Origin: a virus
IMG/VR virus record: IMGVR_UViG_3300005573_001166
Location: 1-64,000 of that record
DNA: 64,000 nt
Reading direction: 5' to 3' (one strand)
The position numbers were made by a program, and so were the translations under genes. Shown here one piece after another: positions 31,403 to 64,000 of this stretch. Positions within the stretch are counted from its first letter, which is position 1, and every line of letters starts with the position of its first letter. The notes beneath the pieces are model-generated. The model did not search any database. It saw only the letters and a program-made list of their open reading frames with translations, and was not told the origin of the DNA.

Positions 31403-31419
31403 AAAGGAGTTTTAAGATT

Positions 31420-32868: not shown

Positions 32869-32884
32869 AAAAGGATGTGTGATT

Positions 32885-33952: not shown

Positions 33953-34211
33953 AGTAAAGAAGTTTGATGAGGTACATGGAACAAAGTGGCTTGCAAGTAT
34001 AGAGGAAATGTGTCGTCTTCATACCCGTAAGGGAGAGCCGGGTCCATATTACCAGTTTAGAACTGATTGGATTAATAAGGGGCTCCTTTTCGCATTAGCT
34101 CAAACTCTTGAGTATGTGGGATATGGGTATGCGGATGCTATGGTGTTTAAGGATGTTGGAAGTGTTTTGGGTTTAATGTTGAAAGATTTCGAGAGTAAAG
34201 GAGTGTATTAA
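33930..34211 (+). CDS. hypothetical protein
   Basis: ATG 33930 after GAGGTG. Confidence 0.6.
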   Translation: MKFPTYSEVKKFDEVHGTKWLASIEEMCRLHTRKGEPGPYYQFRTDWINKGLLFALAQTLEYVGYGYADAMVFKDVGSVLGLMLKDFESKGVY

Positions 34212-34637: not shown

Positions 34638-35428
34638 TGGCAGAAACTATCTGCCCCTGGGCGATATCAGAAAAAGAGCAATTAAAATGTATTATATCTT
34701 TGATGTCAGATTGTCCTTTTGCAGGAGATAATGTAAAATGTGATATCTTGCAGTTTGCTCCATATGACAAAGAAGCAGAAATGGATATAGTGGAGATATA
34801 CCCTGCTATTTCAGGTGAAGGGGCTTCTACAGGTAAGGTATGTGTTATAGTTCGAACAGCCGGGTGTAATTTAAGGTGTAGTTACTGCGATACAACATAT
34901 GCGTATGAGGGAGGCATTAAGAGGAAAACACAGGATGTTGTAGATGAAGTGCTTTCATATGGAATTAATACAGTGTTGTTTACAGGAGGAGAGCCCTTGT
35001 TAAACAGGCAAATAGCTTCCAACTTCTTGAGGGCTATGTTGGAGTATAATATAGATGTATATGTAGAGACTAATGGATCTGTTGATGTAAGAGGCGTTAA
35101 ATTATTAGCGCATATTGTTTTAGATGTCAAAACTCCCTCATCTGGTATGCATGAGTATATGTACTGGAGAAATCTCGGAGTGATAGGTAATCAAGATGAG
35201 GTTAAATTTGTACTCTCCGATAGAGCTGATTATGAGTATGCTAAAAAGATTATAGAAGAATACCGCTTACCGAATAAAACCCCTTATATATTTTTCTCCC
35301 CTGTATGGAAGGATGATATGTCTTTTGTAAAAGAGTTAGCAGGTTGGATGATAAATGATAAGGTTGTTGCAAGGTTGATGCTGCAGCAACACAAAGTAAT
35401 TTATGGTAAGGATATAAGGAGTGTCTAA
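34634..35428 (+). CDS. queE: 7-carboxy-7-deazaguanine synthase (radical SAM) with Cys-rich N-terminal extension
   Basis: ISGEG, RTAGCNLRCSYCDT, TGGEPL, ETNG and QQHK. Confidence 0.93.
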   Translation: MMAETICPWAISEKEQLKCIISLMSDCPFAGDNVKCDILQFAPYDKEAEMDIVEIYPAISGEGASTGKVCVIVRTAGCNLRCSYCDTTYAYEGGIKRKTQDVVDEVLSYGINTVLFTGGEPLLNRQIASNFLRAMLEYNIDVYVETNGSVDVRGVKLLAHIVLDVKTPSSGMHEYMYWRNLGVIGNQDEVKFVLSDRADYEYAKKIIEEYRLPNKTPYIFFSPVWKDDMSFVKELAGWMINDKVVARLMLQQHKVIYGKDIRSV

Positions 35429-48200: not shown

Positions 48201-49482
48201 TGTAAAAGTTATAGAGAGAAAAGTAGTTGCTCCTAAACCTACTAAATCTCCCAAACAAACTGCAGCATCTTGGGAGGCAGTCTGTTTTGTAGATAAGGCG
48301 TTTAAGGACATACAAGAGGGTTGCCAACTCTCTGAAGTGTTGGCTAGTCTGCATAAATCCTCCTATACTGAAGAGGATATAGCCTTTATAAAGAGTGCTT
48401 TGTTGGAGAGGACAGCTAATGATTATTTAGAGGGAACTGTTCCTGAAGATATAAGGGAGCAAGTAACTGCTGTATATTTGAGGGAGAGCCCTGCAGATGC
48501 TTTAGTATATCTTAAACAGATGATCCCTGAATATCAAGGGGATTACAAGGAGTTATTGCAACAGATTGTAAATGAAGTTGGGTATAAACCTGAACTGATA
48601 ACTGAACAAGTCCCTTCTGAGGCAACTGCAGAGACTTATAAAGAGTCGGAATTTCTTAAAACATCTGATCATACAAAAGAAATAGCTTTATGTTTTAAGG
48701 GTGATAGATACCACATATATGATTTAGATTTCGGTGACATTACTCCGGAGGGTGCAAAAGAAAAAGATATAAGGGAAAAGTTAAAGTCGTTGGGTGTTTC
48801 AGAAGATAAAATAGACGAAGCTTTGAAGCAGGTTAGGGAGTTGCAGGTAACTCTACGAGTAAAAGTGGCAGAAACAGAACCCGGAGTGTATATAAGAGAT
48901 ATAGATATTGCAGTTTCGACGGCTTTAACGGAACTTGGGCCTCAAGCACCTAGGGCGTCTTTGATGATGAGGGCAATGGAAAAGTTTGCAGAACTTAACT
49001 CGGAGGAGTTAGCAAGGGCATATCAATCCGAGATAAAGGAGCGACTTAATAAAGAGTTAGAGTTGTATGAGGGAGCTAGAGCAGAAATTCCTGGTACTCA
49101 TAAGGAAATAGGTACCCAGCAGGGTATGAATCCTATAGCTGCAAAACAAGCAAAAACACCGGATCCGAAAAAGAAGAAGGAATTAGTGGACAAGTTTAAA
49201 GAACAAGGAGTGCCTTTAGAACAGGAAGTCAAAAAGAAGCCTAAACCGTGGGAAGTATCTGAAGACAGGCAACTTACTACAGTTGGTTTTAAGTTATACG
49301 ATAGGGTACGTGATCAGGCTAATCCCAACTTGACGGGAACTGTTATAGGTTTTGAGGGTGATAACGTAGTTGTGGCTATGGACAAGTCTATTTACTGCGA
49401 GGCAGGAGCCGAGGGTTTATATCTACCAGACGCCCTTTTGAAGATAGAAGAGACTGATGCTGAGGATCTTAACTTGTGGTAG
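45259..49482 (+). CDS. giant (1407 aa) multidomain, probably virion-associated protein with small SH3/KOW-like and Zn-finger modules
   Basis: Lies between TerL and portal. Modules are separated by Pro/Glu linkers and K/R-x-A motifs. Zn-like motifs CKKC..H...C, CVCPVC..H..C..C and CPID..CPDH. Confidence 0.7.
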   Translation: MAESLIKGNVPDWFQVEGDLDESTTPIIVREEENGTWSVVRAHLGKDLEVDAGYPTKEAAYHAALLGDEGSGIVIESRRRSLVKHADIRPGMVVEYAEEPVTVIAVDGDTVEVITQEGKRFFVDRSQIDAKELPASETTETSCGLEEVKETSCGPKESEEEKSEEEMKEGPPVTIVTMPSYPGERLYPTGIKVILTALRIPYKEAAGTIWVKVADKLEYNPQNSTYRVFDSEGNPVSNVMNRDEAEKWLLENYPIGRETVSSLLHKAAYPPGTTVELPAKQETSISPSTKVMPAENVELYPEQVASVSPAVSAILKQRKASINIVRLAEVLKQSQDELVQDQALDEMAAKSPPVCKKCGKPHWPFQKCPTEEPTTEKSAAVYIGKGSFVYVPAYDEEAEVVGKEGNMLHIKRPGGTYDYVRMQDVKSIDSQEPVKWAGGVLSASQVAAYSTAVAEKMQELGIKTITAEELSDILEAEELEEEEAEDTNETDEETEDTNETDEEELKQIIEDMVEDIQAELAEKEAVKIGQTEEAPIDEVGQFGTNEEELQSYVDEVGRKVVFKGDHWEYEDTGEEAPAPPSSPQSPLFGTAGKVTMKFDWAEFFNDVLPQLSNKEFQTVYEHTLNSPPEVTASQEEHDLYKEEILKFTKEASRRGLPDPTELAFGIQDIVRSKVSPIVEGVVTEYKKEGRKVKYLVASGRNELWFEEKELSPVLAAQGPPPPGARGVDVCVCPVCGKEYPHQRGVPCSLQVCTEHPNTRLMGKPSQPPEPPKSPQPPKGPQPPRGLRPGGPGPVPKAASADVIYERTSEVAGPENKEQQKEFNKELEQKTGSSTEDESEQQGRKQPSASSLQVEADIIKECTIRKCKPGDKKSSKDVWCLYTKHKPERLLGRHSTYEEALAQERAIKAQGMKIAETVNTEEVISPASPKTPISPTVPKVPRTPIPVPVPREAPKKFVCPIDGREYTEAQVGEDRECPDHPDVKVIERKVVAPKPTKSPKQTAASWEAVCFVDKAFKDIQEGCQLSEVLASLHKSSYTEEDIAFIKSALLERTANDYLEGTVPEDIREQVTAVYLRESPADALVYLKQMIPEYQGDYKELLQQIVNEVGYKPELITEQVPSEATAETYKESEFLKTSDHTKEIALCFKGDRYHIYDLDFGDITPEGAKEKDIREKLKSLGVSEDKIDEALKQVRELQVTLRVKVAETEPGVYIRDIDIAVSTALTELGPQAPRASLMMRAMEKFAELNSEELARAYQSEIKERLNKELELYEGARAEIPGTHKEIGTQQGMNPIAAKQAKTPDPKKKKELVDKFKEQGVPLEQEVKKKPKPWEVSEDRQLTTVGFKLYDRVRDQANPNLTGTVIGFEGDNVVVAMDKSIYCEAGAEGLYLPDALLKIEETDAEDLNLW
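46711..46767 (+). repeat. 30-bp in-frame tandem duplication (EDTNETDEE)
   Basis: GAAGACACAAACGAAACAGATGAAGAG occurs twice. Confidence 0.9.
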
Positions 49483-49494: not shown

Positions 49495-49803
49495 ATGTAC
49501 AAATATGCAGAGAAGGAGTTCGGTTTTACAGACGTAGCTCCCGATACAGGAGTTCCTCTTAATTTATTTGAGGAGCATACTTTTCCTAAATACAGTACAG
49601 ATGAAACCAGAGAGCAGTCGCTTTTAGAGCTAATTCCCCATTTAGTAGATGTTGTAAAGTCTGCAGTAGATGATTACGGTGTATTACCTCAGGATGCTTT
49701 CGATTCTATAATAAACGAGTACGAGTTAGACCAGTTTCCTGAAGTTATACACTACTTTTGGAGGCAACTGCCTAAGGAGCTTCAGATTGATATCTCTTAC
49801 TAA
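49495..49803 (+). CDS. hypothetical protein
   Basis: GGAGG SD; begins MYKYA. Confidence 0.7.
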   Translation: MYKYAEKEFGFTDVAPDTGVPLNLFEEHTFPKYSTDETREQSLLELIPHLVDVVKSAVDDYGVLPQDAFDSIINEYELDQFPEVIHYFWRQLPKELQIDISY

Positions 49804-50599
49804 ACTACCTGATTTGTCCAATCCACCTTTGTGTGCTTGCGGTTGTGGAAAGAAGGTAAAGTGGGACTATCATAGAAGAAGATGGTCCAGATTTGTACTA
49901 GGGCACGGATCGAAAAGAGTGCCTTTTAACTTCTTACATGGGAAACCTCCAAAATGTGCTTGTGGCTGCGGCAAACCTGTAAAATGGGATGATAGCAGAG
50001 CTCAATGGTCTAAATATTTAAAAGGACACAGACCTAAAATCCCTTCCAGAAGAAGGGTATACCCCAAACCGAAAAACGCCCCTCCAAAATGCGTCTGTGG
50101 TTGTGGTAGAAGAGTACCTTGGAACTATTATACAGGTCGGTGGCGCAGATTTGCAACAACGAATTGCTTTATTAAGGTACTTGTACAAAGCAGGTTTAAT
50201 CTCTCTATTCTCTTAGGTAGACTTTCTGGAGAGCCCCCAAAATGTGCTTGCGGTTGCGGTAGGAGGGTAAGGTGGAACTTTCTTGAGAACAGGTGGAATA
50301 CATATGCTCGGAATCATGGGCCCATACCTGTAGATGCAGGAGAGGCTCCTTTATGTGCTTGCGGTTGTGGACAGCCTGCAAGATGGAACCATGGGGAGAA
50401 AAGATGGAATAAATACTTGCAAGGGCATTTTTCTGTAGAGAGGGCTTTAAAGCTTTTGACAAAAGCAAAAACTGCAAGGTCTTTTAATCTCTTTTTCCAT
50501 TTATTTAGAACTGTTGCAAACAAAGCGGGTATTCCTATTACACATCAAAATGAGTTGTTAAGAAGTATAGGTGTTATCCCTATAGATATGTTAAGATAA
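49787..50599 (+). CDS. basic protein with five CxCGCG...W...W...H/C zinc-finger-like repeats
   Basis: P(L/K)C(A/V)CGCG occurs five times. Confidence 0.75.
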   Translation: MISLTKLPDLSNPPLCACGCGKKVKWDYHRRRWSRFVLGHGSKRVPFNFLHGKPPKCACGCGKPVKWDDSRAQWSKYLKGHRPKIPSRRRVYPKPKNAPPKCVCGCGRRVPWNYYTGRWRRFATTNCFIKVLVQSRFNLSILLGRLSGEPPKCACGCGRRVRWNFLENRWNTYARNHGPIPVDAGEAPLCACGCGQPARWNHGEKRWNKYLQGHFSVERALKLLTKAKTARSFNLFFHLFRTVANKAGIPITHQNELLRSIGVIPIDMLR

Positions 50600-50618: not shown

Positions 50619-52619
50619 TTGAGTGATACAATTATAGTTAGGAACTTAGAGGAAGAGTTCAGAAAGAGTAGGCGGTTTCATCAAATAAAAACTGCTGCCT
50701 CTCAAGAAGGGTCTGGGGGGGTAAACTATTCTTATCTTGCTCCAGGTTTGTTTAGGGAGCCCCCTACAGTAGACGCTCCTTATTCTAGACGGGTAGGTGT
50801 AGTATCTGGTATAGGTAGTAGATCTGTAGAGTCAGACAATCTTACAAATGTAGAAAAACGGGCTATTATGAAGAGTGCTAGTCATATACTGTATACAGAT
50901 CCTGAAATGTATGGGCCCCTCTTTGATCCTATTAACTGGTATCTGCCTTATACATATAAAGTATTGAATAGATGGATTAGGTATTGGGATAGGTTTGATC
51001 CTTGGATAGGCAATGCCATTGATATGCACAGTGAAATCCCCTTATCGCGGTTTACGTTAACCGGGGTAGAGGATGAGGCTATTCAGAGGGAATATGAGGA
51101 TATAGTAGATCAATTAGAGTTATATCAAAGATTATTAGAGATTACAAGAGAGTATTGGCTTTTAGGGGAGGCATTTCCTTTTGCTCATTGGAATGAGGGA
51201 TGGTTAGCTTATGATCAGTTGTCTTTACTTAATCCTGATTATGTACATGTACGCTCTTCCCCGTTAGTGCATGGGAATATGATACAGTTTGAATTAGAAC
51301 CTGACGACGCCACCCTTTCACTTGTTAAGAGTAGCGATCCTGCCGACTTAGAGGTAAGGGAGCTATTAGATCCTGTTGTAATACAAGCAGTAGAAACAGG
51401 AACAAATATACCTCTATCTAGTTTCAACGTTTCCCATATAGCTCGTAAAGCGTCTCCTTATGATTTGAGAGGTACAAGTATTGTATTAAGATGTTTGAAA
51501 GATATGCTTTATATGGATAAGGTAAGAGAGGCGCAGATGGCAATCGCAGATAGACTTATCGTTCCTTTGCAGATATTTAAGTTGGGAGACCCGAAGGGAG
51601 AGTGGTTGCCGTCTCAAGCTCAGCTGGATGAGTTTGCAGAACTGTTAGCATCAGGAAGAGATGACCCTAATTTTGCTATTGTAAGTCATTATGGGTTACA
51701 GGTAGAATATGTAGGTGCTACAGGCAAAATTATACCTACAACACCCGAATTTGATTTTGTCCGCGATAGAATTTTAGCTGCTCTGTTTACCAACAGAGCT
51801 ATGATGGACGGTTCCGGACCTACATATGCAAATGCATCTGTTGCTTTTGAAGTACTGCAGCTGAGGTATATGTCGCTTAGAGGCCTATTAGAGATGTGGG
51901 TCAAACAGAAAATATTTAAACCTATTGCACAAGCGAGAGGTTACTACACCAAATCCTCTAAATCCCGTACTAAGCAGCTAGTAGTTCCGGACATTAAGTG
52001 GCTGGAGAAGATAAGATTGTTAGATGATGTGCAAATGAAGAGATTCCTACTACAGCTTCGTATGAGAATGGAAGTGCCTTTAAGTACCATATGTGACATT
52101 TTTGACCTTGACTATGAAACTCTTAAAAAAGACTTAGCTAACGAGCTTGGAACTGTAGCAGACCCTGTTTGGAGGCAAGCTATGAGCAAGGAAATAGCAT
52201 TAAGTGCTTCCGCTCCAACTCCTCAACCCTCCTTCGCTATGCCCGGTATTGCTCCAGGTATGGGTATGCCTTTTGGGGAGATGTTTCCCGGTGCTACAGG
52301 GCCTAGTGCCAGAGAGGTTGCCCCTGAGGGAGGTGTTTCTCCTGGAGGTCCAGAGCTTCCAGGTTTACAGCCCGAGATGATAGGGCCTGGTGCAGGAGTG
52401 GAGGCTAGTAAAAAACCTTCTAATTCGGAGGAATTAGCTAATCTTATAGCATATAGGGAGGCTTTAGAGAGAAAACATGTAGAAGCTGTAAAGAAGATAG
52501 AAGAAGAGGTCAAGTCAAATGGGAAAATGTACCGTAGGGTGTTTGGTGTAGCTAGAAACGATAATAAACACGGAGTCAAAAGAATGGGGGATTCTTTTTA
52601 TGTAGTAGATAGAGGTTAA
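50619..52619 (+). CDS. portal protein
   Basis: DPWIGNAIDMH, EYWLLGEAF, LNPDYV, HIAR...RGTSI..R and G-P-T-Y-A-N-A patterns of large-phage portals; downstream of TerL. Confidence 0.8.
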   Translation: MSDTIIVRNLEEEFRKSRRFHQIKTAASQEGSGGVNYSYLAPGLFREPPTVDAPYSRRVGVVSGIGSRSVESDNLTNVEKRAIMKSASHILYTDPEMYGPLFDPINWYLPYTYKVLNRWIRYWDRFDPWIGNAIDMHSEIPLSRFTLTGVEDEAIQREYEDIVDQLELYQRLLEITREYWLLGEAFPFAHWNEGWLAYDQLSLLNPDYVHVRSSPLVHGNMIQFELEPDDATLSLVKSSDPADLEVRELLDPVVIQAVETGTNIPLSSFNVSHIARKASPYDLRGTSIVLRCLKDMLYMDKVREAQMAIADRLIVPLQIFKLGDPKGEWLPSQAQLDEFAELLASGRDDPNFAIVSHYGLQVEYVGATGKIIPTTPEFDFVRDRILAALFTNRAMMDGSGPTYANASVAFEVLQLRYMSLRGLLEMWVKQKIFKPIAQARGYYTKSSKSRTKQLVVPDIKWLEKIRLLDDVQMKRFLLQLRMRMEVPLSTICDIFDLDYETLKKDLANELGTVADPVWRQAMSKEIALSASAPTPQPSFAMPGIAPGMGMPFGEMFPGATGPSAREVAPEGGVSPGGPELPGLQPEMIGPGAGVEASKKPSNSEELANLIAYREALERKHVEAVKKIEEEVKSNGKMYRRVFGVARNDNKHGVKRMGDSFYVVDRG

Positions 52620-52916: not shown

Positions 52917-53027
52917 ATGAAAAAGAAAAAGATAAAAAAGGTAGTAGTTGGAAAAATCAAATCTTCTTTCGAGGTAAAACCCAAGCCTAAAGAAGAGGCT
53001 AATCCTAAACCGGATAAGGAGGAATGA
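52917..53027 (+). CDS. 36-aa lysine-rich peptide (MKKKKIKKVVVGKIKSSFEVKPKPKEEANPKPDKEE)
   Basis: Translated by hand; AAGGAGG SD. Confidence 0.55.
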   Translation: MKKKKIKKVVVGKIKSSFEVKPKPKEEANPKPDKEE

Positions 53028-53030: not shown

Positions 53031-56000
53031 ATGCTGTCCAATCCTGTGAAAATGCAGTGGGATTATAATGAATGGATGCAGCTTGTTAATTTTCTCAGGC
53101 CTCTTAGAAAGGCGGGAATAAGCCAGGTTTTTGATAAAGAGGATCCTTTAGTTAGCCTACTGCAAGAATATAAAAGAACTAATAAAATGAAAACTGCAGG
53201 TTCTTATGAGGACTTACTAGCTGCTGTAGAAGGAAAACTACTTATTGCGTCCATTAAAATAGACGGTGTATTGACTTGTATAGGTTACAAAGATGGAAAG
53301 GCTAAATTAGTAACATTGGAAGGTAGGATTATTACTGATTTGCCTGTTACAGATGAAATAGAACATATTTTAGAAGGAAAAGAAGAAACTATTTTTATAG
53401 GCGAGTTGTATGGGGTTGATTTGGCAGGTAAAGAACTTCCTTTTAACAAAACACTTTCGCTTGTACGAAAACCTGAGAGTGAAGCAGATGAAAAAAGAAT
53501 AAGGGTGGCTGTTTTTGATGTTCTTAAATACGATGGTAAGGATGTATCCCAACTTCCCTACGCACAAAGGTGTCCTATTATAGAAGATGTGTTTGGTTCA
53601 GGTGCGTATATTACTCCTGTTTATACTAAAGAAGGGGACGAGAGTACGGTTGCAGCGTTGTGGAAGCAAAAAGTACTTAAAGAAGGAAGAGAAGGGATTG
53701 TTGTCAGAACGGACGGAACTTATAAACTTAAACCTGTACAAACAGCCGATTTAGCTGTAATAGGGATGGAAATATCAGATAGGCACCCGAATTGGGCAGG
53801 AGCTTTGTTATTAGCAGCTGTAGATAACGATGGTATCTTTTTAGATGCAGGTAAAGTAGGAACCGGCTTAACTCTAAAAGACAGAAGAGACTGGTTTAAA
53901 AAGATAATGGATAAAAAGGTAGTACAAATAGGTAACAAGGTTTTTGTAGACCCCTATGCTTTTGATACCGTAGTCGAGGTAAAATATAAAGGGGTTAACT
54001 TGGAAGGAAGGAATGCTTGGGAGTTTACAGCAGGTAAGCTTGTACCTATAGGTAAAAGGCGTTTTACGGCTTTAAGGCATCCAAGCCTGGTAAGGGTTAG
54101 AGAAGATAAGCATGTAGAGCATTCAGACGTATCCGATGAGCAGATACCTGAAGTGCGTAAGGGATCCCTTACAAGAAAAGCATACGTACCTACCAAAAAA
54201 GAGAGATTGCGTAATAGAGTATACGAGGGCTCTATAGTAGCAGAAGATTATGGCAAGCAGCTTGCTGATTTTACATTAAAGAGGATAGCTTTAGAAGAGG
54301 CGCAGTTAAATGAGGGAACTTTAGATATAATATGGAGTAAATATAACGTACCTCTTAATTATTACGTAACTACAAAGACAAGGGACAAAAACTACTTTCC
54401 TTCTACCTTAGACCAAAATACGTTCTCAGAACTTGCTCCAATAGCCAGAGACGCTTATGCAAGATATCTAAGATTCGGAACAAAGTTAACAGACTATGAT
54501 AAAAAGTTAGCTAAGGAGTTAAGTAAGTATGTTAATATACCCCACCAAGACGATGTCGATGAGTCATATTATTTTGCAGTGCTCAATGCTTGGAACAAAA
54601 AGTATATAAATCCTTTAATGAGTTATACTATTTGGGAGTACTGGGATGAAGCATCCTCTATACCTGTTTCCACTTCACCTCAAGAGTATATAGAGCAAAT
54701 GAAAAATAATTTGGCACTTTCAGAGAAACTAGATGATATAAATAATTCGCAGGCTTTATGGGAACAGCAATTTGCTACTGTTAAAAAAGTAGAGGATGAC
54801 CGAGGGGAGTTAGTGTATGAAACTACAACTCCTAATAACGTGTCTACTGTATATGGATATCTAGCTCCTCAAAGAAGATTCAGGATTCTGTTGTACTACC
54901 TAACTAATACCCAGAGGCCAAACGCTGTCGTTATGGCGGGGTACCTACATACGTTAAAAAGTATGGGTGTTCTTATACCCGAGAACACAGAGTTGCCTGT
55001 TCCTGTAGAAGTAGCAGACAAAGAAGTAAAAACTTTTGAGGAATTAGTAGACGTGGTAGTGGATAGAGGCATACTTTCCAATCAAGAAAGAACAGATCTC
55101 CTAGCTCTATATCAAAGTTTAGACAAAAGAGAAGAAGATGCATTAGACTTTGAAAAAGCGCTTGTACCTTATGTTAGAACGGTTATTACGGAAGAAGATG
55201 AGATAGAGACTGAAATGGCATCTGTAGAACCTGTAGAAGTTACTCCTGAAACAGAAGCAAGAGATCTAGTAAGAACGTACTGGCAAATGAGTGAATTTGG
55301 TAGTCCTCTTCTTATTACTATTGGCTCGGAGTCTCCTATATTAGAATTGGATACTCCAGTTGTTTTTAATAGAAAGAAAAGAGGAAATTTTGCAGAGTTA
55401 GCTAATGCCCTCGTTTTTACAGATAGGTTGCATAGAAACATGGGCAACATTATACTTATAAACCCTCTACTAGGCAGCGATTTCAAAATAGAACCGATCA
55501 CAGAGGAGGGGTTGAGGCAACTTAGCCATGTATATGAAGGAATGTGGTGGGAAACTGAAGGAAAGGAGTTAAAGGGGGTAGGGGATGTTGGAGAGTTTGC
55601 TCGTTATTATTTTGAAGAGGATTTAGGTGCTGTTAAGAACGCGTCGGATATGTTAAAGAGTATAGAGGAATATATACAAAACTCTCCTGGAACTGTATTG
55701 GTCTATTATAAGGAGTCAGGTGTGTTAGATAGGGTTGACACTTTTACAGGTGCTTTAAGTGTACTAGCTGCCGACTACCCAGGAGTTTATTTTGCAAGGA
55801 CGCCTGAGTTAACTACAGAGTATGTTGTGTATGCCAATTTACCTTCTCCAATAGAAGAACAAATACTTGAAGGAAGGGGCGTTCCCAACCTTTCCGAAGT
55901 ACAACAAGCTTTGAGCATTGCAACCCCTTTACAGATAGAAGAGGTACCTGAAGAGCCTGAACAACCTACTCCTGAACAACCTACTCCTGAACAACCTACT

Positions 56001-58421
56001 CCTGAACAACCTACTTCTGAACAACCTACTCCTGAAGAGCCTGAAGAAAAGTTGGGTATGAGGCTACCAGACAACGAGTCAGATTTTCTTAAACTTCTCT
56101 ATGCTTTAGATATACCAAAGTTGTACGAAGAAGAGGAAGGCATACCCCCAGAGGAAAAACAGTTGGAAGATGTACCTGAACCTGAAATACATGAACAACC
56201 TGCTCCTGAGGTGCCTACACAACCTGAACTTGAGCCTCAGATGTTCGAGCCTAACGAATTTCCTGAAGGGGCGATACATATACCGGACTCTTTAGATAGA
56301 GAAAAGGTATTGGCGGATGAGGAGGTAGAAAATTTGGAAGGTAGTCTTCCAGGTTACCTAGATGCTTTATTCGCTCATCCGGAATACAGGTTTGAAGTTG
56401 AAGGTAAAAGGGTATGGGATCTTACTATAAAGCTCAGATCTTATAATGTAAGTAGAAAAGAATATATAAAGAGTGTAGTATACTCTATTTTAGAGGAGAG
56501 GGCTCCAGGTCAGGACTTTAATATTCGCATATTACCAAAAGACATAGACGATCAGTTAGCTTCTGATGAGAAAGCTGTTACACCTGTTTTTGTAGCAACG
56601 GTGCCTCCAAAGAAAGAAAAAGAGGAAGCGGAACCTCCTGTTTTTCCTTCAGTATCAGAATCAGAGTTTCTCAGTAATGTAACTGCCTCTACACTTACAG
56701 AGGTATTAAGTAGTATACTTACTGCTTTAAATATACCTGTAACTATTTCTCCCACTATAATTGCTCCACCAGACGAAATTGTAAGCAACCGTTTTACGGC
56801 TATTTCAAATATAATGAGAGATCTATTTGAAAAAGAGCCTGATTTGTATAGCATAGTAGTCGACCTAACTGCAGAAAAGTTTGGGTTGACAGGCGAGGAG
56901 GTAGACGAGTACATTCGCAACCTCCTTAACATAAAGGTACTTACACTAGTACCCAGAGATCTTGTACCTGAAGATGCAGATCATACAGGGGAAGAAGGTA
57001 CTTTTCTTCCAAAAGTTTACCTTTCAGATACAGCCTCAGAGTTGTTAGCAACCAGGCGTAGAATAGATAATATGAAAGATGCTTTAAATGATGCGATAGG
57101 GAAGGCAGAGGGGCAGAAAATAACTATATCTTTACCTTATTACGATAGAGATATATACGAAGCAGCGCTCAAAGAGGTTCAGATACCGAAGGGCGTAACT
57201 ATAGTACCTCAATGGACTAATACAGAAAATGATTGGCATTTTGAAGTGTCTTATGCAATGCCTAGAGAATTAGGTACAGCTCCTAGAAACTCGATCCCAT
57301 CTCGCAGATTTTTCAAGATCATACCTGAAGTAGAGGAGGTAGAGTTTCCTATCGATGCTTTAGTAAAGACTATACAAAAAACCGACAAGCGGCCTTTACT
57401 TATTTATGTAAATCAAGCCGATTATGAAGCAGTTAGAGACATGTCGAATCAAGTAGGAGAGTTAGCGAACGATCCTGGCATATTTATAGCGATGGATAAT
57501 TCAATAGATCCTATAGACAATAATAGAAGGTTTGAGGTTAAAGTGCTTCCTAAGAGTACATCTTTATACTTTCCATATAAAAATGCATGGGAACCAACAG
57601 ACGTCTCTATACAGGATAAACTGGAAGAGCAATATGATCGTAATGTACAACGTTTACACGAAATAGAAGGACAGCAAACGCCCGCTCTTGTTAATATGCT
57701 GTCGACAGAAAAGGTAATGGATCTAAATAAGGCCGTAACAGGACCTATAGCGTCGTTTAAAGGTTATAGTAGACAGATTCCTTTAAACTTACAAATGACT
57801 TTTAATAACAACGGTATAGAAATCTCGCCTTTTGCTAAGCTATACCGTTTAGAGGAAAACGTTTACTATGTTACTGATCCAGCTTTAATAAGGGAAAAGG
57901 AAGGAGAGGCTTTTATAATTAAGGTAGATCCTAACTCTAAAACATCAGAAGTTTACAAAGCATCAGATGAATTTACCTCATTTACAGATGTATACAAATT
58001 TCGTCAGGGCATGCAGGAAGCATATAACTACTGTACATCTAGTACTCCATCTCCTGAACAAGTTGTACGTTATTGGTTGCAGGAAGAGGTACATAAAGCA
58101 TCATATCCGGAGCAACTCGGCTGGCTAAGAATGATGCATTTATTTGGCTTTCCTGTTAAATACAGAGTTAAGGGCATTCGTCCTTCTTCAACATCTTACA
58201 AAGCGTTAGGAATATCTGATGCGGTTTCTTTTATGTCTCGATATACTGCAGGTGTGCAACCTAATGCAGAAGAAATAAAAGCTCAAATTGCAACGTTACA
58301 AGAAGACATACCTGAAGAACTTCGCAGTGTATACGAGACAGGCTGGGTAGAGGGTTTAATGCAGTATGGTTATCCTGTAGATGATCTAGGTGTAAAAGGA
58401 TTCCCTATATTATCGCTTTAA
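53031..58421 (+). CDS. giant (1796 aa) protein with an N-terminal ATP-dependent DNA ligase module (about 53199-54182)
   Basis: Motif I KIDG (Lys codon at 53256), III FIGELY, IIIa VFDVL, IV EGIVVR, V YKLKP; OB fold GKVGTG, VVEVKY, LRHP..VRVREDK. Remainder acidic and unassigned. Confidence 0.88.
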   Translation: MLSNPVKMQWDYNEWMQLVNFLRPLRKAGISQVFDKEDPLVSLLQEYKRTNKMKTAGSYEDLLAAVEGKLLIASIKIDGVLTCIGYKDGKAKLVTLEGRIITDLPVTDEIEHILEGKEETIFIGELYGVDLAGKELPFNKTLSLVRKPESEADEKRIRVAVFDVLKYDGKDVSQLPYAQRCPIIEDVFGSGAYITPVYTKEGDESTVAALWKQKVLKEGREGIVVRTDGTYKLKPVQTADLAVIGMEISDRHPNWAGALLLAAVDNDGIFLDAGKVGTGLTLKDRRDWFKKIMDKKVVQIGNKVFVDPYAFDTVVEVKYKGVNLEGRNAWEFTAGKLVPIGKRRFTALRHPSLVRVREDKHVEHSDVSDEQIPEVRKGSLTRKAYVPTKKERLRNRVYEGSIVAEDYGKQLADFTLKRIALEEAQLNEGTLDIIWSKYNVPLNYYVTTKTRDKNYFPSTLDQNTFSELAPIARDAYARYLRFGTKLTDYDKKLAKELSKYVNIPHQDDVDESYYFAVLNAWNKKYINPLMSYTIWEYWDEASSIPVSTSPQEYIEQMKNNLALSEKLDDINNSQALWEQQFATVKKVEDDRGELVYETTTPNNVSTVYGYLAPQRRFRILLYYLTNTQRPNAVVMAGYLHTLKSMGVLIPENTELPVPVEVADKEVKTFEELVDVVVDRGILSNQERTDLLALYQSLDKREEDALDFEKALVPYVRTVITEEDEIETEMASVEPVEVTPETEARDLVRTYWQMSEFGSPLLITIGSESPILELDTPVVFNRKKRGNFAELANALVFTDRLHRNMGNIILINPLLGSDFKIEPITEEGLRQLSHVYEGMWWETEGKELKGVGDVGEFARYYFEEDLGAVKNASDMLKSIEEYIQNSPGTVLVYYKESGVLDRVDTFTGALSVLAADYPGVYFARTPELTTEYVVYANLPSPIEEQILEGRGVPNLSEVQQALSIATPLQIEEVPEEPEQPTPEQPTPEQPTPEQPTSEQPTPEEPEEKLGMRLPDNESDFLKLLYALDIPKLYEEEEGIPPEEKQLEDVPEPEIHEQPAPEVPTQPELEPQMFEPNEFPEGAIHIPDSLDREKVLADEEVENLEGSLPGYLDALFAHPEYRFEVEGKRVWDLTIKLRSYNVSRKEYIKSVVYSILEERAPGQDFNIRILPKDIDDQLASDEKAVTPVFVATVPPKKEKEEAEPPVFPSVSESEFLSNVTASTLTEVLSSILTALNIPVTISPTIIAPPDEIVSNRFTAISNIMRDLFEKEPDLYSIVVDLTAEKFGLTGEEVDEYIRNLLNIKVLTLVPRDLVPEDADHTGEEGTFLPKVYLSDTASELLATRRRIDNMKDALNDAIGKAEGQKITISLPYYDRDIYEAALKEVQIPKGVTIVPQWTNTENDWHFEVSYAMPRELGTAPRNSIPSRRFFKIIPEVEEVEFPIDALVKTIQKTDKRPLLIYVNQADYEAVRDMSNQVGELANDPGIFIAMDNSIDPIDNNRRFEVKVLPKSTSLYFPYKNAWEPTDVSIQDKLEEQYDRNVQRLHEIEGQQTPALVNMLSTEKVMDLNKAVTGPIASFKGYSRQIPLNLQMTFNNNGIEISPFAKLYRLEENVYYVTDPALIREKEGEAFIIKVDPNSKTSEVYKASDEFTSFTDVYKFRQGMQEAYNYCTSSTPSPEQVVRYWLQEEVHKASYPEQLGWLRMMHLFGFPVKYRVKGIRPSSTSYKALGISDAVSFMSRYTAGVQPNAEEIKAQIATLQEDIPEELRSVYETGWVEGLMQYGYPVDDLGVKGFPILSL
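55956..56030 (+). repeat. 15-bp in-frame tandem repeat (PEQPT) x5
   Basis: CCTGAACAACCTACT units. Confidence 0.95.
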
Positions 58422-58437
58422 AAAAGCCGGAAAGGAC

Positions 58438-61400
58438 TTGCAGAGTAAAATGACTACAGCTGATTTTATACAACTTTTAAGACAAGCAGACGAAAGCAAT
58501 CCTATACAACCCGACGAACCTAATGACGACATATGGGAGGCGATAACCGAGTTTGTTCCTCTGCCTCCTGATGTCATTGAAGGGGCAGGGGCAGACTTAG
58601 TACAGAAGGTTGTATCTGCATATAAACAATTACAAGAGTCAGATTCTCCGGAAAAAGAGAGCTATTTGCAAGAAATATTAAACGATTTCTTAAATCAATA
58701 CCAAGAGTTACCCCCCGATCAACAGCAAATTGCAGAAGATGTACTAAAAGAATATCAGGGTGACTATCCTGAGATCGTCCCTGCTTTCAATCAAGCTCTT
58801 ACTGATTTTATAAAGCAGATGCAGCCGATAGAGCAACCAGTACAGCCGGTGCAGCAAGTACAGCAAGTACAGCAAGAACAGCCTATACAACCTGAGATGC
58901 CTGCTGTAGTAAGAACTTACAGTACTAACATTTTAAATGCATTAAGTCAGTTAGAGGAGAAGAATCCTGAACAAATTAGAGACATTCTGGCTAACAAGCT
59001 CAACGATATCTTCAATCATGCTCTTAGAGAGGAAGAGAGGCAAGAGTACTTCCAAATCTATACAGACATAATGAACAATGTATTAGCCAACTTTCCTGAT
59101 TTACAGAATCAAGTGGACGTGGGTCAAATATGGAATGGGGAGTTGGAAGTCAGAGAGAAGGGCTTGCAATTAGCAGGAGATTTGGCCGCTTCTTTAAAAG
59201 AGGGATTGAAAGCAGGAGGCACAGCGTACGACTTACAATCTATTATACTAGATAAGCTGATGCCTTTAATAGAGGAGTACAGTAAAGGCGATGAAAAGCA
59301 AAAGCGTGAGATATTATCGGCATATAATGCACTACGTTATGCCTTTCCTTCTGTTTACGGCGATGCTGTAACAGCTAAAACACTCACATCTGTTATTGAA
59401 AACATTTGGAAAGAAGGGCAAGAATGGTTATCTCCTACCCCTTGGGTGAACATTATAAAATCGCAAATAGGGGCGGAGGATCTTGTAAACTATGATAGAA
59501 TAGTAAACATATTTGAACGAAATGCAACCAGATTCCTAAAAAGTAATTTACCCTTTCTACGTACCCCTGAACAGCGTAAAGCTTTTATAGACTCTTTTTT
59601 AAACAGTGTCAGTACTACTCCGTATATAAGAGATCTAGTTAAAGAGGAGTTATATGATTGGTTGGATGATTTAGAAAGAGAAAAACCTGAACCTGGAACA
59701 CCTGAATACGATGCTGCTGAAGGTTTAGGAGGATTAAAGCAAGATGCTTTAGGTAGGGCCTCAGAGTACACAGCCATACCTGCTAGATTCGATAAAGCAT
59801 TTATTTCATTTTTAAGTCAGTTGCCTAGGCAAGTTGATGTAGATACAGCAGCTAACGAGTACAAAGAAAGGTGGCTTTCTGCGTTAGAGGAGGCTATACC
59901 TACTGAAAACACGACAGCTGCTACCTACAATAAAGCAGTTTTGAATTGGTTACAGAAACAGATAGACAATGTTTATAATAAGCGCCTTTCAGAATACAAA
60001 CAGAGGCCTGAAACAGTAACTCCTGCTTGGTATGGTGCTTTAGCTGTAGGCAGTTTCGAGAAAGATGCTTTTGGAGACGTAACTACAAAACCTGAGGTTG
60101 TTGCAGATAGGTTTGAAAAAGGATTGACTGCTTATTGGAACGAGTTTACTAGAGAGCAAAGAGATGAATACTATAATGCTTTTGTAAATCAGTTGAAAAG
60201 TGAATTAGGAGAGGCAGCACAAGGTTACGTTAAAGAGGTAGACAAAAGGTATGAAGAGTTAAAACGGAGTAAAGGTACGGGAAAAGTTATAGGTCCTACC
60301 GATCCGACTATAAGAGCGATTGAGGGTTACATAGATAAGGGAAACTTTCCCGGATTAGCAAGTTTTTGGATCCGCTATGATGCTTCTAATGCATCTCCTC
60401 AAGAGAAACAACAAGTTTGGGATACTATTGTAGGGCACTCATTAGTAGATAGTATAAATACTAATATGGAGGCTCTAATGAATCAGTTAGATGCGGGAGA
60501 AGTCCCTGACGAGATAAAAGACATTATAAACACGAATGCAGTAAAAGTAGATGATGCACAGGTTGTTGGTAAAGAGGGCAACCAGTGGAAAGTATTAGTT
60601 AAATCAGGAGACAGTGAGTATCTTTTTAATATAAGGTTTGAGCTCTACAAAGGAAACGAGCAGATAGGAATACATTATAGTGATATAGATACTGCTGATT
60701 TTGTTAGAAGGGAATATTATAGAAATAAAGTTGTAAACAAAGTATTTAGTGAATTAGCAGATAAAGACCCCGAAACTTGGCAGGGGGAAGATTGGTATGC
60801 TTTTGGTGATCAGTTAGTAGGTTTAATTAAGAAAAGCTACGAAGGTTCTAAAAAGTCAGAAGACTTTATAAACAAACTAACTGCTCAACAACTGGTCGCA
60901 CTTACTAGAAACATGCCTAAAGATGCATATACAACTTTTGTAGGTTATCTACCTCCAGAGATAGCTGCTTATATGCCTTATAGATCTAGTACTTTAACAT
61001 CTTTACTTTTCGAGTGGTTGGATAGGAAAGGTACAGCCGCCTCTAGAGCAGAGATAGAGAAGAGAATGAGAGCAGGTACTACGCCAACTCCGCCTCCTTC
61101 CACACAACCTCCTCCTACAGCAGGTACTCCACCTTCTACACAACCTCCTGCAACAGGTACTCCACCTTCTACACAACCTCCTGCAACAGGTACTCCACCT
61201 TCTACACAACCTCCTGTAAAAGGTACTATAGAAGTTAAGTATGATGATGAAAAAGGGTACGTTCTTGATTTAAGCAAAAAGGACGAGCTTATACTGAAAG
61301 ACGGTAGGACGGTTACTCCTCTTTCTACTTATGTAGATCCTCTCGGGTTTTTATTGGTAGCAGATGAAAACGGTAATAGGGATGTTATAAATTTGAAAGA

Positions 61401-63669
61401 TATTGAACATGTCTTGAAAAAAGGGAAGAGGTACTACTCCTTAGAGATGCCACAGACTCTTCCTGACTACGTAACATCAGCTAAAAATGTACTAAGTAAT
61501 CCGGAGGAGTTCAGTAGGTTTGATCCTGACACTCAGAACCAAATAATAGATATATTAATTGATAATATCGCTTTAAAACTGTTTTCGAAGTTAAATGTTG
61601 ACGAATTAAAAGGATTAAGAGACATGTATAAAAACCGAAACTGGACGGGCTTTTATGATTTCTTTGATAGTAAAATAAACGAGGTTGTTAAAAGGGATCC
61701 TGAATATGCTGAATTAGATAAGTTGCTAAAGGGGTTGCCTATATTCCCTTCAGATATCGGCGATCGAGTAGTTGAGTATATAAAGAAGATGGGTATACCT
61801 AAGAAAGGGAGTATCGTTACAGCTCAAGAGTACTACTCGTCTTATCCTGAAGGCATGGGAGCAGAGCTTTCACCTAACATATTTACTTCTAGGTCTCCTG
61901 TGTTGTTTCCTTACAAAGCAGGGGAGGAATGTACGTTAGAGGAGTTGGACTTTCCGATTGTAGCTCATTACTTAAATCAAGTTGCTTCTGATAACTATGG
62001 TATAGAAAACTTTACTCAAAAAGTTTCTGAAGGGGAGAATCGTAAAACCATTTGCTTTGTATACAATTCAACCTTTCCGCACGCTAAATGGGTAGATGAT
62101 CAGCATTTACATGTTAACTTATATCGTGTTAAAGACTTAGCTGATTTATTAGGAGTATTGGTACACGAGTTTAGGCATGTACTTACTGTAATGACAAATG
62201 AACCCTCTTCCGACTTACAAGAAAGAGTAAATGCATCTCCTTCCGAGTATGTAAAGCTGCCTGAGGAAAATATTGCTTTTCCAGAGATGATATCTTTTAT
62301 GCTTTATACTTTAAGACTGCCAAAAGATGTGGTAAGGGATAAGATTATATCGATTATAGGAGAGGAGAACACGTATAAAGTAGATGAGTGGTTTAAGCAA
62401 TTAGGAATAGAGAAAAGTGCTGGATTTCCCAGTCACCCTAAGAATATCGTAATACCGAGAAATGAGTATTACCCTAAAGGTTTAACAGAGGAAGACGTTT
62501 GGAATTATTACAACAGTGTTAGAAATAAGATACTTCCTTATCTAAAGGGCCAGCCCGTAATGCTTGTACTAAATGCAGATGGAGAAGTTTACAAGAGGCA
62601 TGATAAAGATCCCGAGTCTTTTATAGATATAAATACTGAGAAGGAGTTCGACCGATTTAATAACGGTAGGGTTTTGGAGTTTCATAAGGTATTAGAGGAT
62701 ACTTCAAACTATGGTTTTGTAGATGTTGATCCTAGAGAAGACGTTCCTTTTGACAAAGTAAAAGAAGTAACAGGAATGCTTTACGACTTACTTTCGTCAC
62801 TACCTGAAGTCGAAGAGGTAGATTTAATATACTCAGGCGGTAGGGGTTTCCATCTGTACCCTAAATATAGGAGCTACAAAGACGTCGATGGGTTAAGGAG
62901 AGAGTTAAGAGACATACTTGAAGCTTTTGCAAACAGCGTGGACGCTAACTTAACTACCCACCGAACCACCAGTAGCGATCAAATAAGGTTGGATGTATCT
63001 ACTTTAAAGAGTACAGGCTCACTTAGGGCAGTATATTCGTTAAACGGGAGAACAGGTTTGAGGTGCATACCTGTCTCCAGAAGAGATTTAGATGACTTCG
63101 AGAAAGAGGATGCTAAAATAAAGACGGGTATAAAGACAGCCCAGGATACAGGTCAAGGGGTTTTTGTACCTACTACCTCTGAGAGTTTAGGAGAATATAC
63201 TTCCTCTATACAAGAGGTCTTACTTATGGCTATATCAGATGAGTGCCATGCTATAGCAACTTACAGTGCTATGATAGATGCATTACCTGAGGACGATACT
63301 AACAGGTCTATTTTAGAAGAGCTTAAGTTTGATGAACAAGTTCACGAACGAGTTCTATTAAGGATGTTAGGACGTGAGTTGCCGATAAAAGAGACTCCTA
63401 TAGCAGAAGAAACTTTGCCTCCTGTTCGGTTTAGACCTGACTACAATGATTTAGAGGAAAGAGGTAAGTTCTTTGCCAAGTTTATAGACCTTGTATCTGT
63501 AGCAATAGCAGACGAGAGGCATGCTATATCATTCTACGATACTATATTGGACGGTATGAATGTAACAGATCCGAATTATAGAGTCATAGAGAAGATAATG
63601 AGGGATGAACAGGATCATGAGAGAAAACTGCTTAACATGCTAGGAGAGGAAGTTCCCACCTTGGATTAA
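58438..63669 (+). CDS. giant (1743 aa) protein: long helical region, HEXXH module, LigD-type primase-polymerase, ferritin/rubrerythrin-like C-terminus
   Basis: HEFRH at 62164. AEP module: LTEEDVWNYY, LPYLKGQPV, LEFH, FVDVDP, SGGRGFH, IRLD, VYSL. Ferritin-like: DE..A..Y and DE..H, twice. Confidence 0.85.
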   Translation: MQSKMTTADFIQLLRQADESNPIQPDEPNDDIWEAITEFVPLPPDVIEGAGADLVQKVVSAYKQLQESDSPEKESYLQEILNDFLNQYQELPPDQQQIAEDVLKEYQGDYPEIVPAFNQALTDFIKQMQPIEQPVQPVQQVQQVQQEQPIQPEMPAVVRTYSTNILNALSQLEEKNPEQIRDILANKLNDIFNHALREEERQEYFQIYTDIMNNVLANFPDLQNQVDVGQIWNGELEVREKGLQLAGDLAASLKEGLKAGGTAYDLQSIILDKLMPLIEEYSKGDEKQKREILSAYNALRYAFPSVYGDAVTAKTLTSVIENIWKEGQEWLSPTPWVNIIKSQIGAEDLVNYDRIVNIFERNATRFLKSNLPFLRTPEQRKAFIDSFLNSVSTTPYIRDLVKEELYDWLDDLEREKPEPGTPEYDAAEGLGGLKQDALGRASEYTAIPARFDKAFISFLSQLPRQVDVDTAANEYKERWLSALEEAIPTENTTAATYNKAVLNWLQKQIDNVYNKRLSEYKQRPETVTPAWYGALAVGSFEKDAFGDVTTKPEVVADRFEKGLTAYWNEFTREQRDEYYNAFVNQLKSELGEAAQGYVKEVDKRYEELKRSKGTGKVIGPTDPTIRAIEGYIDKGNFPGLASFWIRYDASNASPQEKQQVWDTIVGHSLVDSINTNMEALMNQLDAGEVPDEIKDIINTNAVKVDDAQVVGKEGNQWKVLVKSGDSEYLFNIRFELYKGNEQIGIHYSDIDTADFVRREYYRNKVVNKVFSELADKDPETWQGEDWYAFGDQLVGLIKKSYEGSKKSEDFINKLTAQQLVALTRNMPKDAYTTFVGYLPPEIAAYMPYRSSTLTSLLFEWLDRKGTAASRAEIEKRMRAGTTPTPPPSTQPPPTAGTPPSTQPPATGTPPSTQPPATGTPPSTQPPVKGTIEVKYDDEKGYVLDLSKKDELILKDGRTVTPLSTYVDPLGFLLVADENGNRDVINLKDIEHVLKKGKRYYSLEMPQTLPDYVTSAKNVLSNPEEFSRFDPDTQNQIIDILIDNIALKLFSKLNVDELKGLRDMYKNRNWTGFYDFFDSKINEVVKRDPEYAELDKLLKGLPIFPSDIGDRVVEYIKKMGIPKKGSIVTAQEYYSSYPEGMGAELSPNIFTSRSPVLFPYKAGEECTLEELDFPIVAHYLNQVASDNYGIENFTQKVSEGENRKTICFVYNSTFPHAKWVDDQHLHVNLYRVKDLADLLGVLVHEFRHVLTVMTNEPSSDLQERVNASPSEYVKLPEENIAFPEMISFMLYTLRLPKDVVRDKIISIIGEENTYKVDEWFKQLGIEKSAGFPSHPKNIVIPRNEYYPKGLTEEDVWNYYNSVRNKILPYLKGQPVMLVLNADGEVYKRHDKDPESFIDINTEKEFDRFNNGRVLEFHKVLEDTSNYGFVDVDPREDVPFDKVKEVTGMLYDLLSSLPEVEEVDLIYSGGRGFHLYPKYRSYKDVDGLRRELRDILEAFANSVDANLTTHRTTSSDQIRLDVSTLKSTGSLRAVYSLNGRTGLRCIPVSRRDLDDFEKEDAKIKTGIKTAQDTGQGVFVPTTSESLGEYTSSIQEVLLMAISDECHAIATYSAMIDALPEDDTNRSILEELKFDEQVHERVLLRMLGRELPIKETPIAEETLPPVRFRPDYNDLEERGKFFAKFIDLVSVAIADERHAISFYDTILDGMNVTDPNYRVIEKIMRDEQDHERKLLNMLGEEVPTLD
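61072..61215 (+). repeat. 33-bp in-frame tandem repeat (GTPPSTQPPAT), 3-4 copies
   Basis: CAGGTACTCCACCTTCTACACAACCTCCTG units. Confidence 0.9.
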
Positions 63670-63771
63670 AACCCCCTTATTCCCCTTTTTACCCAATTGT
63701 TTGACTTTGGAATATGTAATTACATACCAGAGCCCATGAAAGTGGTTTATAGGGGGTTTTAGGCTGTTTTT
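63666..63771 (+). promoter_or_regulatory. conserved intergenic element, copy C
   Basis: TAAAACCCCCT...TATGTAATTACATA...TTTATAGGGGGTTTTAGGCTGTTTTT. Confidence 0.55.
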
Positions 63772-63785: not shown

Positions 63786-63863
63786 ATGGCTGTAGCTAAA
63801 AAGAAGTCTAATCCGAAAAAAAGGAAACGCAAAATTCTTAAGCGTATGCAGAGAGGTTATTAG
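63786..63863 (+). CDS. 25-aa highly basic peptide (MAVAKKKSNPKKRKRKILKRMQRGY)
   Basis: Translated by hand; AAGGAGG SD 5 nt upstream. Confidence 0.55.
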   Translation: MAVAKKKSNPKKRKRKILKRMQRGY

Positions 63864-63885
63864 TATTATGGAGGGCGGAGTAAAA

Positions 63886-64000
63886 ATGACTGGTTTAGCG
63901 GTTAAGATGAAGGTAGCGGTAACTGATTTTAAGAAGCAGTACCTGTTTGACTTTTATGGCACAGCCTTCCTGCCTATTACTCAGCCTCCTGGAAGAATGG
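63886..64000 (+). CDS. 5' part of a gene running off the window
   Basis: GGAG SD; MTGLAVKMKVAVTDF... open to the window end. Confidence 0.5.
   Translation, partial: MTGLAVKMKVAVTDFKKQYLFDFYGTAFLPITQPPGRM

Follow-up and report, generated by a model that had tools for sequence, protein, structure and literature searches.

The DNA analysed here comprises bases 1-64000 (hereafter the window) of IMG/VR record IMGVR_UViG_3300005573_001166, a viral sequence of 159,386 bp that is about 90% complete and is contained in hot-spring, sediment and microbial-mat metagenomes, with no RNA dataset listed among them; genome coordinates above 64000 continue the window numbering. Our interest lies in its head module, where two giant genes directly downstream of the portal gene, and a third large gene beyond the window, carry a DNA ligase, a LigD-type polymerase and a LigD-type phosphoesterase. 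The portal, prohead protease and major capsid protein (MCP) are 37-39% identical to their Bacillus phage G counterparts (portal 38-39%, protease 37%, MCP 38%), and the source virus is an uncultured hot-spring myovirus related to phage G. In the head module, terminase (41471) and portal (50619) are followed by the two giant genes, genes of 595 and 782 aa, a set of small genes, the protease-scaffold gene (70141), genes of 1302 and 170 aa, and the MCP gene (79749). The terminase large subunit that starts it (41471-43450; PHROG phrog_9, E 1e-5), the phage G gp14-like portal (50619-52619; PHROG portal E 1e-63, 38% identity to the phage G portal, with IKTA at aa 23-26), the two giant genes with every module and motif placed in them below, and the start of the 595-aa gene are all on the + strand. 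The protease-scaffold (genome 70141-74715; PHROG E 1e-16) belongs to the phage G gp19 family and has the invariant His90 and Ser141, and the MCP (genome 79749-80738) was matched by PHROG (E 7e-45) and by PDB 6wkk (E 7e-56).

Both open reading frames (ORFs) that an initial annotation of the window had placed behind the portal are present. Giant protein 1 (53031-58421, 1796 aa) consists of a short leader, the ligase and an acidic carrier of ~1400 aa (isoelectric point (pI) 4.6) belonging to no known family. Giant protein 2 (58438-63669, 1743 aa), which starts at a TTG with an ATG four codons downstream, consists of an acidic carrier of ~1130 aa, a zincin, the LigD-type polymerase and a ferritin-like module. 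The carrier regions are acidic (pI 4.4-4.9), as is the scaffold. Next comes a helical protein of 595 aa (window 63868-64000, continuing past the window edge; genome 63868-65655), a paralogue of aa 228-770 of the 782-aa protein (45%, E 3e-148), and then the 782-aa ORF with the phosphoesterase (genome 65639-67987). The ligase, polymerase and phosphoesterase occupy three genes in a row of four large head-module genes, all between the portal and the prohead protease/MCP, and none is in the replication block, which encodes PolA with a uracil-DNA glycosylase (UDG) domain, DnaB, DnaG, RecA, an SbcC-like ATPase and ribonucleotide reductase. The gene content of this block suggests that the host is probably bacterial; a GTDB genome scan for the host gave a single weak archaeal match. 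In three other sequencing runs (~95-99% identity) all indels within both giant ORFs are multiples of 3, and frameshifting indels are confined to the intergenic gap. These runs (X3, X4 and X7) represent other strains, and run X2 may be the source sample. An assembly artefact or frameshift as the origin of the giant ORFs is ruled out by these frame-keeping indels.

The ligase module of giant protein 1 (53115-54182, aa 29-384) contains nucleotidyltransferase and OB domains, with the KIDG motif at 53256-53267 and its end at TRKA (54171-54182). It was matched by PF01068 over aa 56-232 (E 6e-16) and by PF04679 over aa 254-360 (E 8e-9). Among 10 homologues, motifs I (Lys76), III (Glu125), IIIa (Asp163), IV (Glu221) and V (Lys232/Lys234) are invariant and motif VI (Arg355/Arg357/Asp359/Lys360) is kept at a level of at least 90%. 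With a confident structure model (predicted local distance difference test 87.6), these results bear out the annotation of a complete ATP-dependent ligase opening the 1796-aa protein. Like LigC and the ligase domain (LIG) of LigD, it has no N-terminal DNA-binding domain. Its best fold match was to archaeal ligase cores (Z 26.6, root-mean-square deviation (rmsd) 4.2, 322 aligned), compared with Z 21.4, rmsd 4.6 and 278 aligned for LigD LIG, domain orientation influencing these Z scores. Archaeal ligases come first by sequence as well as by fold, and the module scores 59 bits against a TIGR02779 cut-off of 228. It appears to resemble archaeal-type catalytic cores more than LigD LIG. This is the sole ATP ligase in the genome, where no NAD ligase was found either; the search for a second ligase came back empty, and the earlier remark that the replication block lacks one was correct.

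The second enzyme annotated from the window, a LigD-type archaeo-eukaryotic primase (AEP) polymerase in the 1743-aa protein, also held up. This module (62422-63141, aa 1329-1568) is bracketed by EKSA (62410-62421) and IKTA (63130-63141), carries DxD at 62722-62730, SGGRGFH at 62833-62853 and RLD at 62986-62994, and matches PF21686 over aa 1352-1569 (E 5e-15). Asp1429, Asp1431, His1472 and Asp1519 are conserved in 81-100% of 150 homologues. The fold is closest to the polymerase domain (POL) of LigD (VIA Z 24.0 against the Mycobacterium tuberculosis (Mtb) domain, rmsd 2.5, 229 aligned), followed by Methanocella paludicola POL (Z 22.6), Prim-PolC (Z 22.0) and replicative primases (Z 15.6). Judged by its residues and modelled fold, the polymerase belongs to the LigD/Prim-PolC clade of AEPs and has their DxD, SxH and Asp motifs. 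The structure model is confident between EKSA and IKTA and of low confidence in the flanks. The equivalent of Mtb POL Lys26 is Glu1351, and Glu is found here in 75% of the family; for this alignment we set the Mtb numbering offset from the catalytic aspartates, and by counting back along the Mtb sequence Asn13 and Lys16 would presumably map to His and Asn. In Mtb POL, Asn13, Lys16 and Lys26 hold the 5′-phosphate during end synapsis (PMC8656161).

The polymerase has two neighbours in giant protein 2. A zincin-like metallopeptidase module lies between IVTA and EKSA (61825-62421), with its HExxH motif as HEFRH at 62164-62178; it precedes POL in relatives too, and its Atlas neighbours are SprT-like and LPD23 at 0.90, which we treat as a lead only. 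A ferritin/rubrerythrin-like di-iron four-helix module follows the polymerase (63142-63666; PF02915 E 5e-9). It has two di-iron helix pairs, its best NCBIfam match is an encapsulin ferritin-like cargo (EncB family, E 1e-7, below the cut-off), and one relative (L020) carries it as a free-standing gene of 191 aa. Such a module could shield packaged DNA from iron damage. A second HExxH protein is encoded directly upstream of the protease (genome 69460-70128).

The initial annotation recognised no LigD phosphoesterase (PE) in the window, which is correct, but the genome search placed one 2 kb past the window edge. This minimal LigD 3′-phosphoesterase (genome 65945-66328, aa 103-230 of the 782-aa ORF; PF13298 E 4e-29) is bracketed by IKTA and IVTA. 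Its best structure match is the archaeal PE 3p4h (E 9e-28), and it is closest to stand-alone archaeal PEs. The His-His-Asp metal triad, the Arg and the His are kept; the N-terminal arm (Arg14/Glu21) is absent, and Gln154 and Phe160 stand at the positions of Glu82 and Tyr88, where relatives have Glu in 76% and Tyr in 90%. We followed PMC8656161 and PMC3082917 for the roles of the arm, Glu82 and Tyr88 as determinants of 3′-phosphatase activity. In archaeal PEs, losing the arm or the Tyr weakens the 3′-phosphatase and spares part of the ribonucleotide-trimming/diesterase activity (PMC3082917), and by its residues the phage enzyme looks weak as a 3′-phosphatase. A PE search in proteins longer than 1370 aa found none, which is weak evidence, and scans of viral contigs with LIG and PE gave no matches. 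The annotated LigD-type character of the set thus stood in part: it gained a third LigD domain and a LigD-clade POL, but the ligase appeared nearer to archaeal-type cores.

A short motif, K/R-x-Ala, recurs in the portal, scaffold and MCP and at the domain ends of the giant proteins. Head-module proteins contain an excess of K-x-A (90 vs 61, z 4.0; z 3.3 when the protease is left out) that replication, sugar and tail genes do not show (z 0.8-1.5), and K.A and R.A pairs emerge de novo from the portal, protease-scaffold and MCP sequences alone. Polymerase termini were compared in 150 representatives, one per 50%-identity cluster. Free polymerases have their N-terminal Met five residues upstream of a conserved His-Pro in 17 of 23 cases, and 46 of 65 N-fused polymerases have Ala at the position of that Met. 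K/R-x-A lies within 1-2 residues of the Met position in 27 of the 65; randomly chosen positions of these proteins gave 2.0±1.4, with 7 as the highest value among 2000 draws. The fused polymerases with Ala have 18 unrelated upstream partners and are scattered over the tree, and 13 free polymerases of ~229 aa begin and end where the module described here is bracketed. The ligases behave alike. In all seven fused ligases with a real leader, an Ala stands 1-2 residues before the start position (Met) shared by nine free N-termini, with K/R two or three residues before the Ala; in giant protein 1 the predicted N-terminal cut site is LRKA (53103-53114, Ala = aa 28). The module after IVTA in the 782-aa protein has a paralogue, and the similarity starts at that paralogue's own MKVA.

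The bracketing of both modules by K-x-A-like motifs, as first annotated, was therefore upheld for EKSA...IKTA and for TRKA, with motif statistics beyond chance, and had to be moved at the start of the ligase. Structure models used to check the domain boundaries are confident only for the stretches between the motifs. The original candidate, MKTA (aa 53-56), was rejected: it lies internally, in a strand of the folded model, and its Ala is not conserved. We also rejected the motif as a fossil Shine-Dalgarno sequence or internal start, as ten sites have no common Shine-Dalgarno sequence and use all four Ala codons. Taken from the sequences, the simplest reading of K/R-x-A at module ends is a protease site. 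An ancestral structural Ala is conceivable for one domain, but it leaves the motif at unrelated domains and in the portal, scaffold and MCP unexplained. The cutting enzyme is likely the gp19-type protease, for which no sequence match was found in PDB or Pfam. Herpesvirus assemblins, which have the same fold, cleave after Ala; we take this as a lead only.

A second recurring element could serve as a prohead-targeting tag. This L-P-x-T/N-E-x-x-F helix motif is found at 56061-56105 in giant protein 1, and a second copy opens an 84-aa ORF at genome 67991 (67991-68245). A profile trained on relatives gives 21-22 bits at these two head-module sites and at most 12.8 on shuffled sequence. As L-P-x-T-E-E-x-F, the helix has ~20 occurrences in head-module proteins of this clade (also L018, L020 and L022) and is nearly confined to head genes. 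It frequently lies at a protein end or immediately precedes a predicted cut site, and a weaker version is present in the portal tail.

No Ku was recognised in the window by the initial annotation, and this extends to the genome: two models gave 0 matches in the 90%-complete sequence, and none was found in 31 related virus records, four of them complete, although a Ku may be supplied by the host. Bacterial LigD (POL, PE and LIG, working with Ku) and the split archaeal non-homologous end joining (NHEJ) set of M. paludicola share with the phage set the three kinds of enzyme, the POL fold and the PE metal ligands. Unlike LigD, the phage system comes without Ku and its domains sit inside three head-module proteins of 780-1800 aa; the POL is ~240 aa with Glu at Lys26, the PE is minimal with Tyr88 and Glu82 changed, the ligase seems nearer to archaeal-type cores, and all modules score below the NCBIfam LigD cut-offs. 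As judged from these sequence features, the phage set, with its altered pocket and without Ku, falls outside the definition of LigD/NHEJ, though it may work like part of it. Together, the Lys26 to Glu change in POL and the changes in PE suggest that the likely job moves from double-strand end joining to gap filling and nick sealing. Ku-free gap repair is established for LigC and Prim-PolC (PMC7470946), and this mycobacterial pair likewise combines a core-only ATP ligase with an AEP polymerase of the LigD clade, as suits an apparatus that fills gaps and seals nicks. The phage set differs in being phage-encoded, in adding a PE and in sitting in putatively cleavable polyproteins; the phage PolA carries a fused UDG domain.

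We propose that the head module encodes 'beads-on-a-string' proteins that combine acidic carriers with compact enzyme modules. From their position, the giant proteins would be made late with the head genes and incorporated into the prohead core, entering through the acidic carriers and perhaps the L-P-x-T-E-E-x-F helix. The motif statistics suggest that the gp19-type protease would then cut after K/R/V-x-Ala, freeing the ligase (40 kDa), the LigD-type polymerase (28 kDa), the phosphoesterase (15 kDa), the zincin and the ferritin-like domain with ends nearly as in free-standing homologues. By the precedent of T4 and SPN3US, the folded pieces would remain in the head and exit with the DNA. Their residues and the lack of Ku point to a LigC/Prim-PolC-like kit acting without Ku, in which the polymerase would fill short gaps, probably with ribonucleotides, the phosphoesterase would trim the RNA tract and the ligase would seal nicks. 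Before phage gene expression begins, the kit would mend the incoming genome at single-strand breaks, abasic gaps and staggered breaks that have annealed, with heat, oxidation, and host nicking or restriction enzymes as possible sources of damage. On the sequence evidence we regard packaging plus cleavage as probable. The whole proposal, a packaged, protease-released, Ku-free nick/gap repair kit for the phage's own DNA, is our best explanation and stands in our view at about even odds.

Polyvalent proteins (Iyer et al. 2017, PMC5512222) provide a precedent for the general strategy: they are likewise large multi-domain proteins among virion genes with a zincin and were proposed to be packaged, processed and injected. 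The separators here differ from theirs in matching the other substrates of the prohead protease rather than pointing to the zincin. The main text of PMC5512222 contains no LigD or DNA ligase cargo; the ligases it mentions are all RNA ligases, and it finds Primpol solely in conjugative elements. Conversely, Pfam and PHROG recognised no MuF, SNF2, methylase, ART or N4 RNA polymerase domains in the three phage proteins, with ~2500 aa of carrier unassigned. In T4 and SPN3US the prohead protease cuts packaged, ejected proteins (PMC10052503), and a short three-residue motif, long acidic propeptide-like regions and cargo encoded with head genes are shared with the phage described here. The motif here ends in Ala rather than Glu, the cargo is predicted to be excised from the middle of a polyprotein on both sides, and it consists of DNA-repair enzymes instead of an RNA polymerase or core proteins. 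The head module of Bacillus phage G (Donellivirus) has portal, protease and MCP in the same order, with small genes between portal and protease. LigD is not mentioned in a jumbo-phage survey, the passages of PMC12484599 consulted give no cleavage sites, and literature on LigD with phage virion, portal or prohead protease contained no description of this system, subscription journals being mostly uncovered. LigD-type repair cargo in virions was thus not found described in searchable papers.

The placement of the enzymes was also surveyed in relatives, as proposed with the initial annotation. Three further phages have ligase and polymerase after the portal, as two genes or as one 2498-aa fusion, so that the head-module position is conserved in close relatives. 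In four more lineages the polymerase, or all three enzymes, adjoin the portal, protease, MCP or terminase (loci L024-L029, L032 and L041), and at loci L030, L055 and L058 the polymerase or kit lies in the neck and tail region. LIG, POL and PE co-occur in many orders, including single proteins with all three; among the 150 representatives the combinations were POL-PE (32), LIG-POL (11) and LIG-POL-PE (8). Companion domains in relatives include HAD, HNH, nucleotidyltransferase, GGDEF, mCpol, CCA/HD, SLT and Acb1-like 2H. At E up to 0.001 the polymerase family has 912 clusters at 50% identity, which may include distant cellular relatives, and 241 at E up to 1e-30. Fused polymerases occur in records with this protease (G009/G010, G015, G017 and G025; the protease was not found in G014 and G016), and free polymerases occur in 13 records without a protease match, most of them incomplete.

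Several side observations were made in these relatives. Polyproteins P0004, P0006, P0034 and P0044 add a CCA-type nucleotidyltransferase with HD, GGDEF, a minimal CRISPR polymerase, SLT and Acb1-like 2H to LigD-type modules, and the added modules point to nucleotide-signal counter-defence cargo loaded by the same route. No head genes were recognised within 10 kb of one LIG-POL-PE protein of 1531 aa (L016/L017 10001-14596). The portal (L009, L020 and L024), the protease (L013 and L041) and, right after KxDG, the ligase (L030) are interrupted by long insertions that are probably inteins. Free-standing POL and LIG genes of jumbo relatives sit among glycosyltransferase genes, not by the portal.

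Several findings weigh against the packaged repair kit. No cultured phage among 50,697 records carries such a POL or PE, and phage G has no ligase of this family. The kit is optional: several portal/MCP relatives show none of LIG, POL and PE in their head loci, and in the loci read no PE was found in the closest relatives. A clade of ~27 polymerases is free-standing, and in a complete 312-kb jumbo genome LIG, POL and two PEs are dispersed and nothing matches this protease; enzymes that are free and scattered in this way can evidently be useful without this packaging route. The motif signal is weaker at polymerase C-termini (21 of 73, compared with 9.8±2.8), and a motif of three residues also arises by chance within folded domains (in the ligase as MKTA, RVA and RNA). 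Finally, the altered phosphoesterase may leave 3′-phosphates in place and so block sealing by the ligase; a HAD phosphatase module was not detected in this genome.

The packaged kit could instead be a true end-joining machine that rejoins CRISPR/restriction double-strand breaks or circularises the genome on entry, using host Ku, a phage end-binding protein that was not recognised, or neither. All three LigD-type activities in one phage, the single LIG+POL+PE proteins of the family and a POL that folds like the synapsis-capable LigD POL are consistent with this, as are anti-defence-type modules such as Acb1-like 2H domains in related polyproteins. Against it, there is no Ku in the genome or the related records, the Lys26 of the 5′-phosphate pocket that synapsis needs is Glu here and in most of the family, the ligase is far below LigD cut-offs, and the phage has RecA and SbcCD for recombination. 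We therefore consider this explanation unlikely, and the end joining, circularisation and anti-CRISPR sealing put forward in the initial annotation become the less likely function. We are similarly doubtful of a broader version, in which K/R-x-Ala would be a modular loading code in a widespread phage G-related lineage, shipping a Ku-independent end-repair machine that reseals restriction/CRISPR breaks before expression; if true, it would amount to pre-packaged anti-defence by repair, not by blocking the nuclease.

Ejection itself may be dispensable if the enzymes are late cytoplasmic repair or replication-finishing factors, acting on Okazaki and recombination nicks or on concatemers before or during packaging, and are fused only for expression and release by the prohead protease or zincin. 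The ligase being the genome's only one, the free POL and LIG pairs of jumbo relatives among glycosyltransferase genes, and the zincin directly upstream of POL, given that zincin self-processing was proposed for polyvalent proteins (PMC5512222), would all fit. Nevertheless, the motif is shared with the prohead substrates portal, scaffold and MCP, and the usual place of action of such head proteases is inside the prohead (PMC10052503). Moreover, carriers of 130-160 kDa would be costly if expression were the sole need, and fused polymerases turn up in protease-bearing records while free ones occur in the 13, mostly incomplete, without a match; we think this improbable. Least probable to us is that the giant proteins have a structural role in the core or in ejection, carrying the enzyme modules as hitch-hiking cassettes of little current function, with the PE already decaying. 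Modules are indeed shuffled, gained and lost among relatives and the two PE substitutions are rare in the family, but homologues at 30-60% identity conserve all catalytic residues of the ligase and the polymerase, the PE metal ligands are intact, archaeal PEs without the Tyr retain some diesterase activity (PMC3082917), and the reading frames are kept in other strains.

If the packaged, Ku-free repair kit is right, phages bring a ready-made set of DNA-repair enzymes inside the capsid, a kind of virion cargo that searchable papers do not describe. The Ala-for-Met correspondence predicts exact mature N-termini and the specificity of the uncharacterised phage G gp19-type protease. The hot-spring virus is also a source of small ligase, polymerase and phosphoesterase modules, and its polyproteins suggest a natural route by which multiple enzymes could be loaded into a capsid. 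The polymerase family is large and absent from cultured phage collections.

Other features of the head module and genome are worth recording. Two further giant acidic head-module proteins of 1407 and 1302 aa (45259-49482; genome 74734-78642) have many K/R-x-A sites and no known domains, and just 5′ of the portal a basic protein of 270 aa (49787-50599) has five Cys-x-Cys-Gly-Cys-Gly repeats and a DUF6527 match. Tiny Lys/Arg-rich ORFs of 36 and 25 aa with good ribosome-binding sites (52917-53027 and 63786-63863) stand immediately upstream of the ligase giant and the 595-aa gene and are candidate DNA-condensing core peptides. No shared late-promoter motif was evident when intergenic gaps were inspected by eye. 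A ~50-bp intergenic repeat with a T-tract, a G-run and an inverted GGCC arm lies upstream of several genes in different modules (window 63712-63764, with similar copies near 10366-10420 and genome 92870-92910, 109440-109490 and 157540-157580); it gives loose ends in three runs and is possibly a promoter or regulatory hairpin. The family A DNA polymerase with its N-terminal uracil-DNA glycosylase domain is at 22663-25290, and 7-deazaguanine pathway genes span 19977-35428 (GATase-QueC at 31420-32868 by Pfam; FolE, QueD and QueE by sequence appearance only), which we read as a second anti-restriction strategy in the same phage. Between MCP and the neck genes lie ~33 kb of sugar-nucleotide and glycosyltransferase-like genes, together with Ser-rich tail-region proteins (genome 81587-114700).

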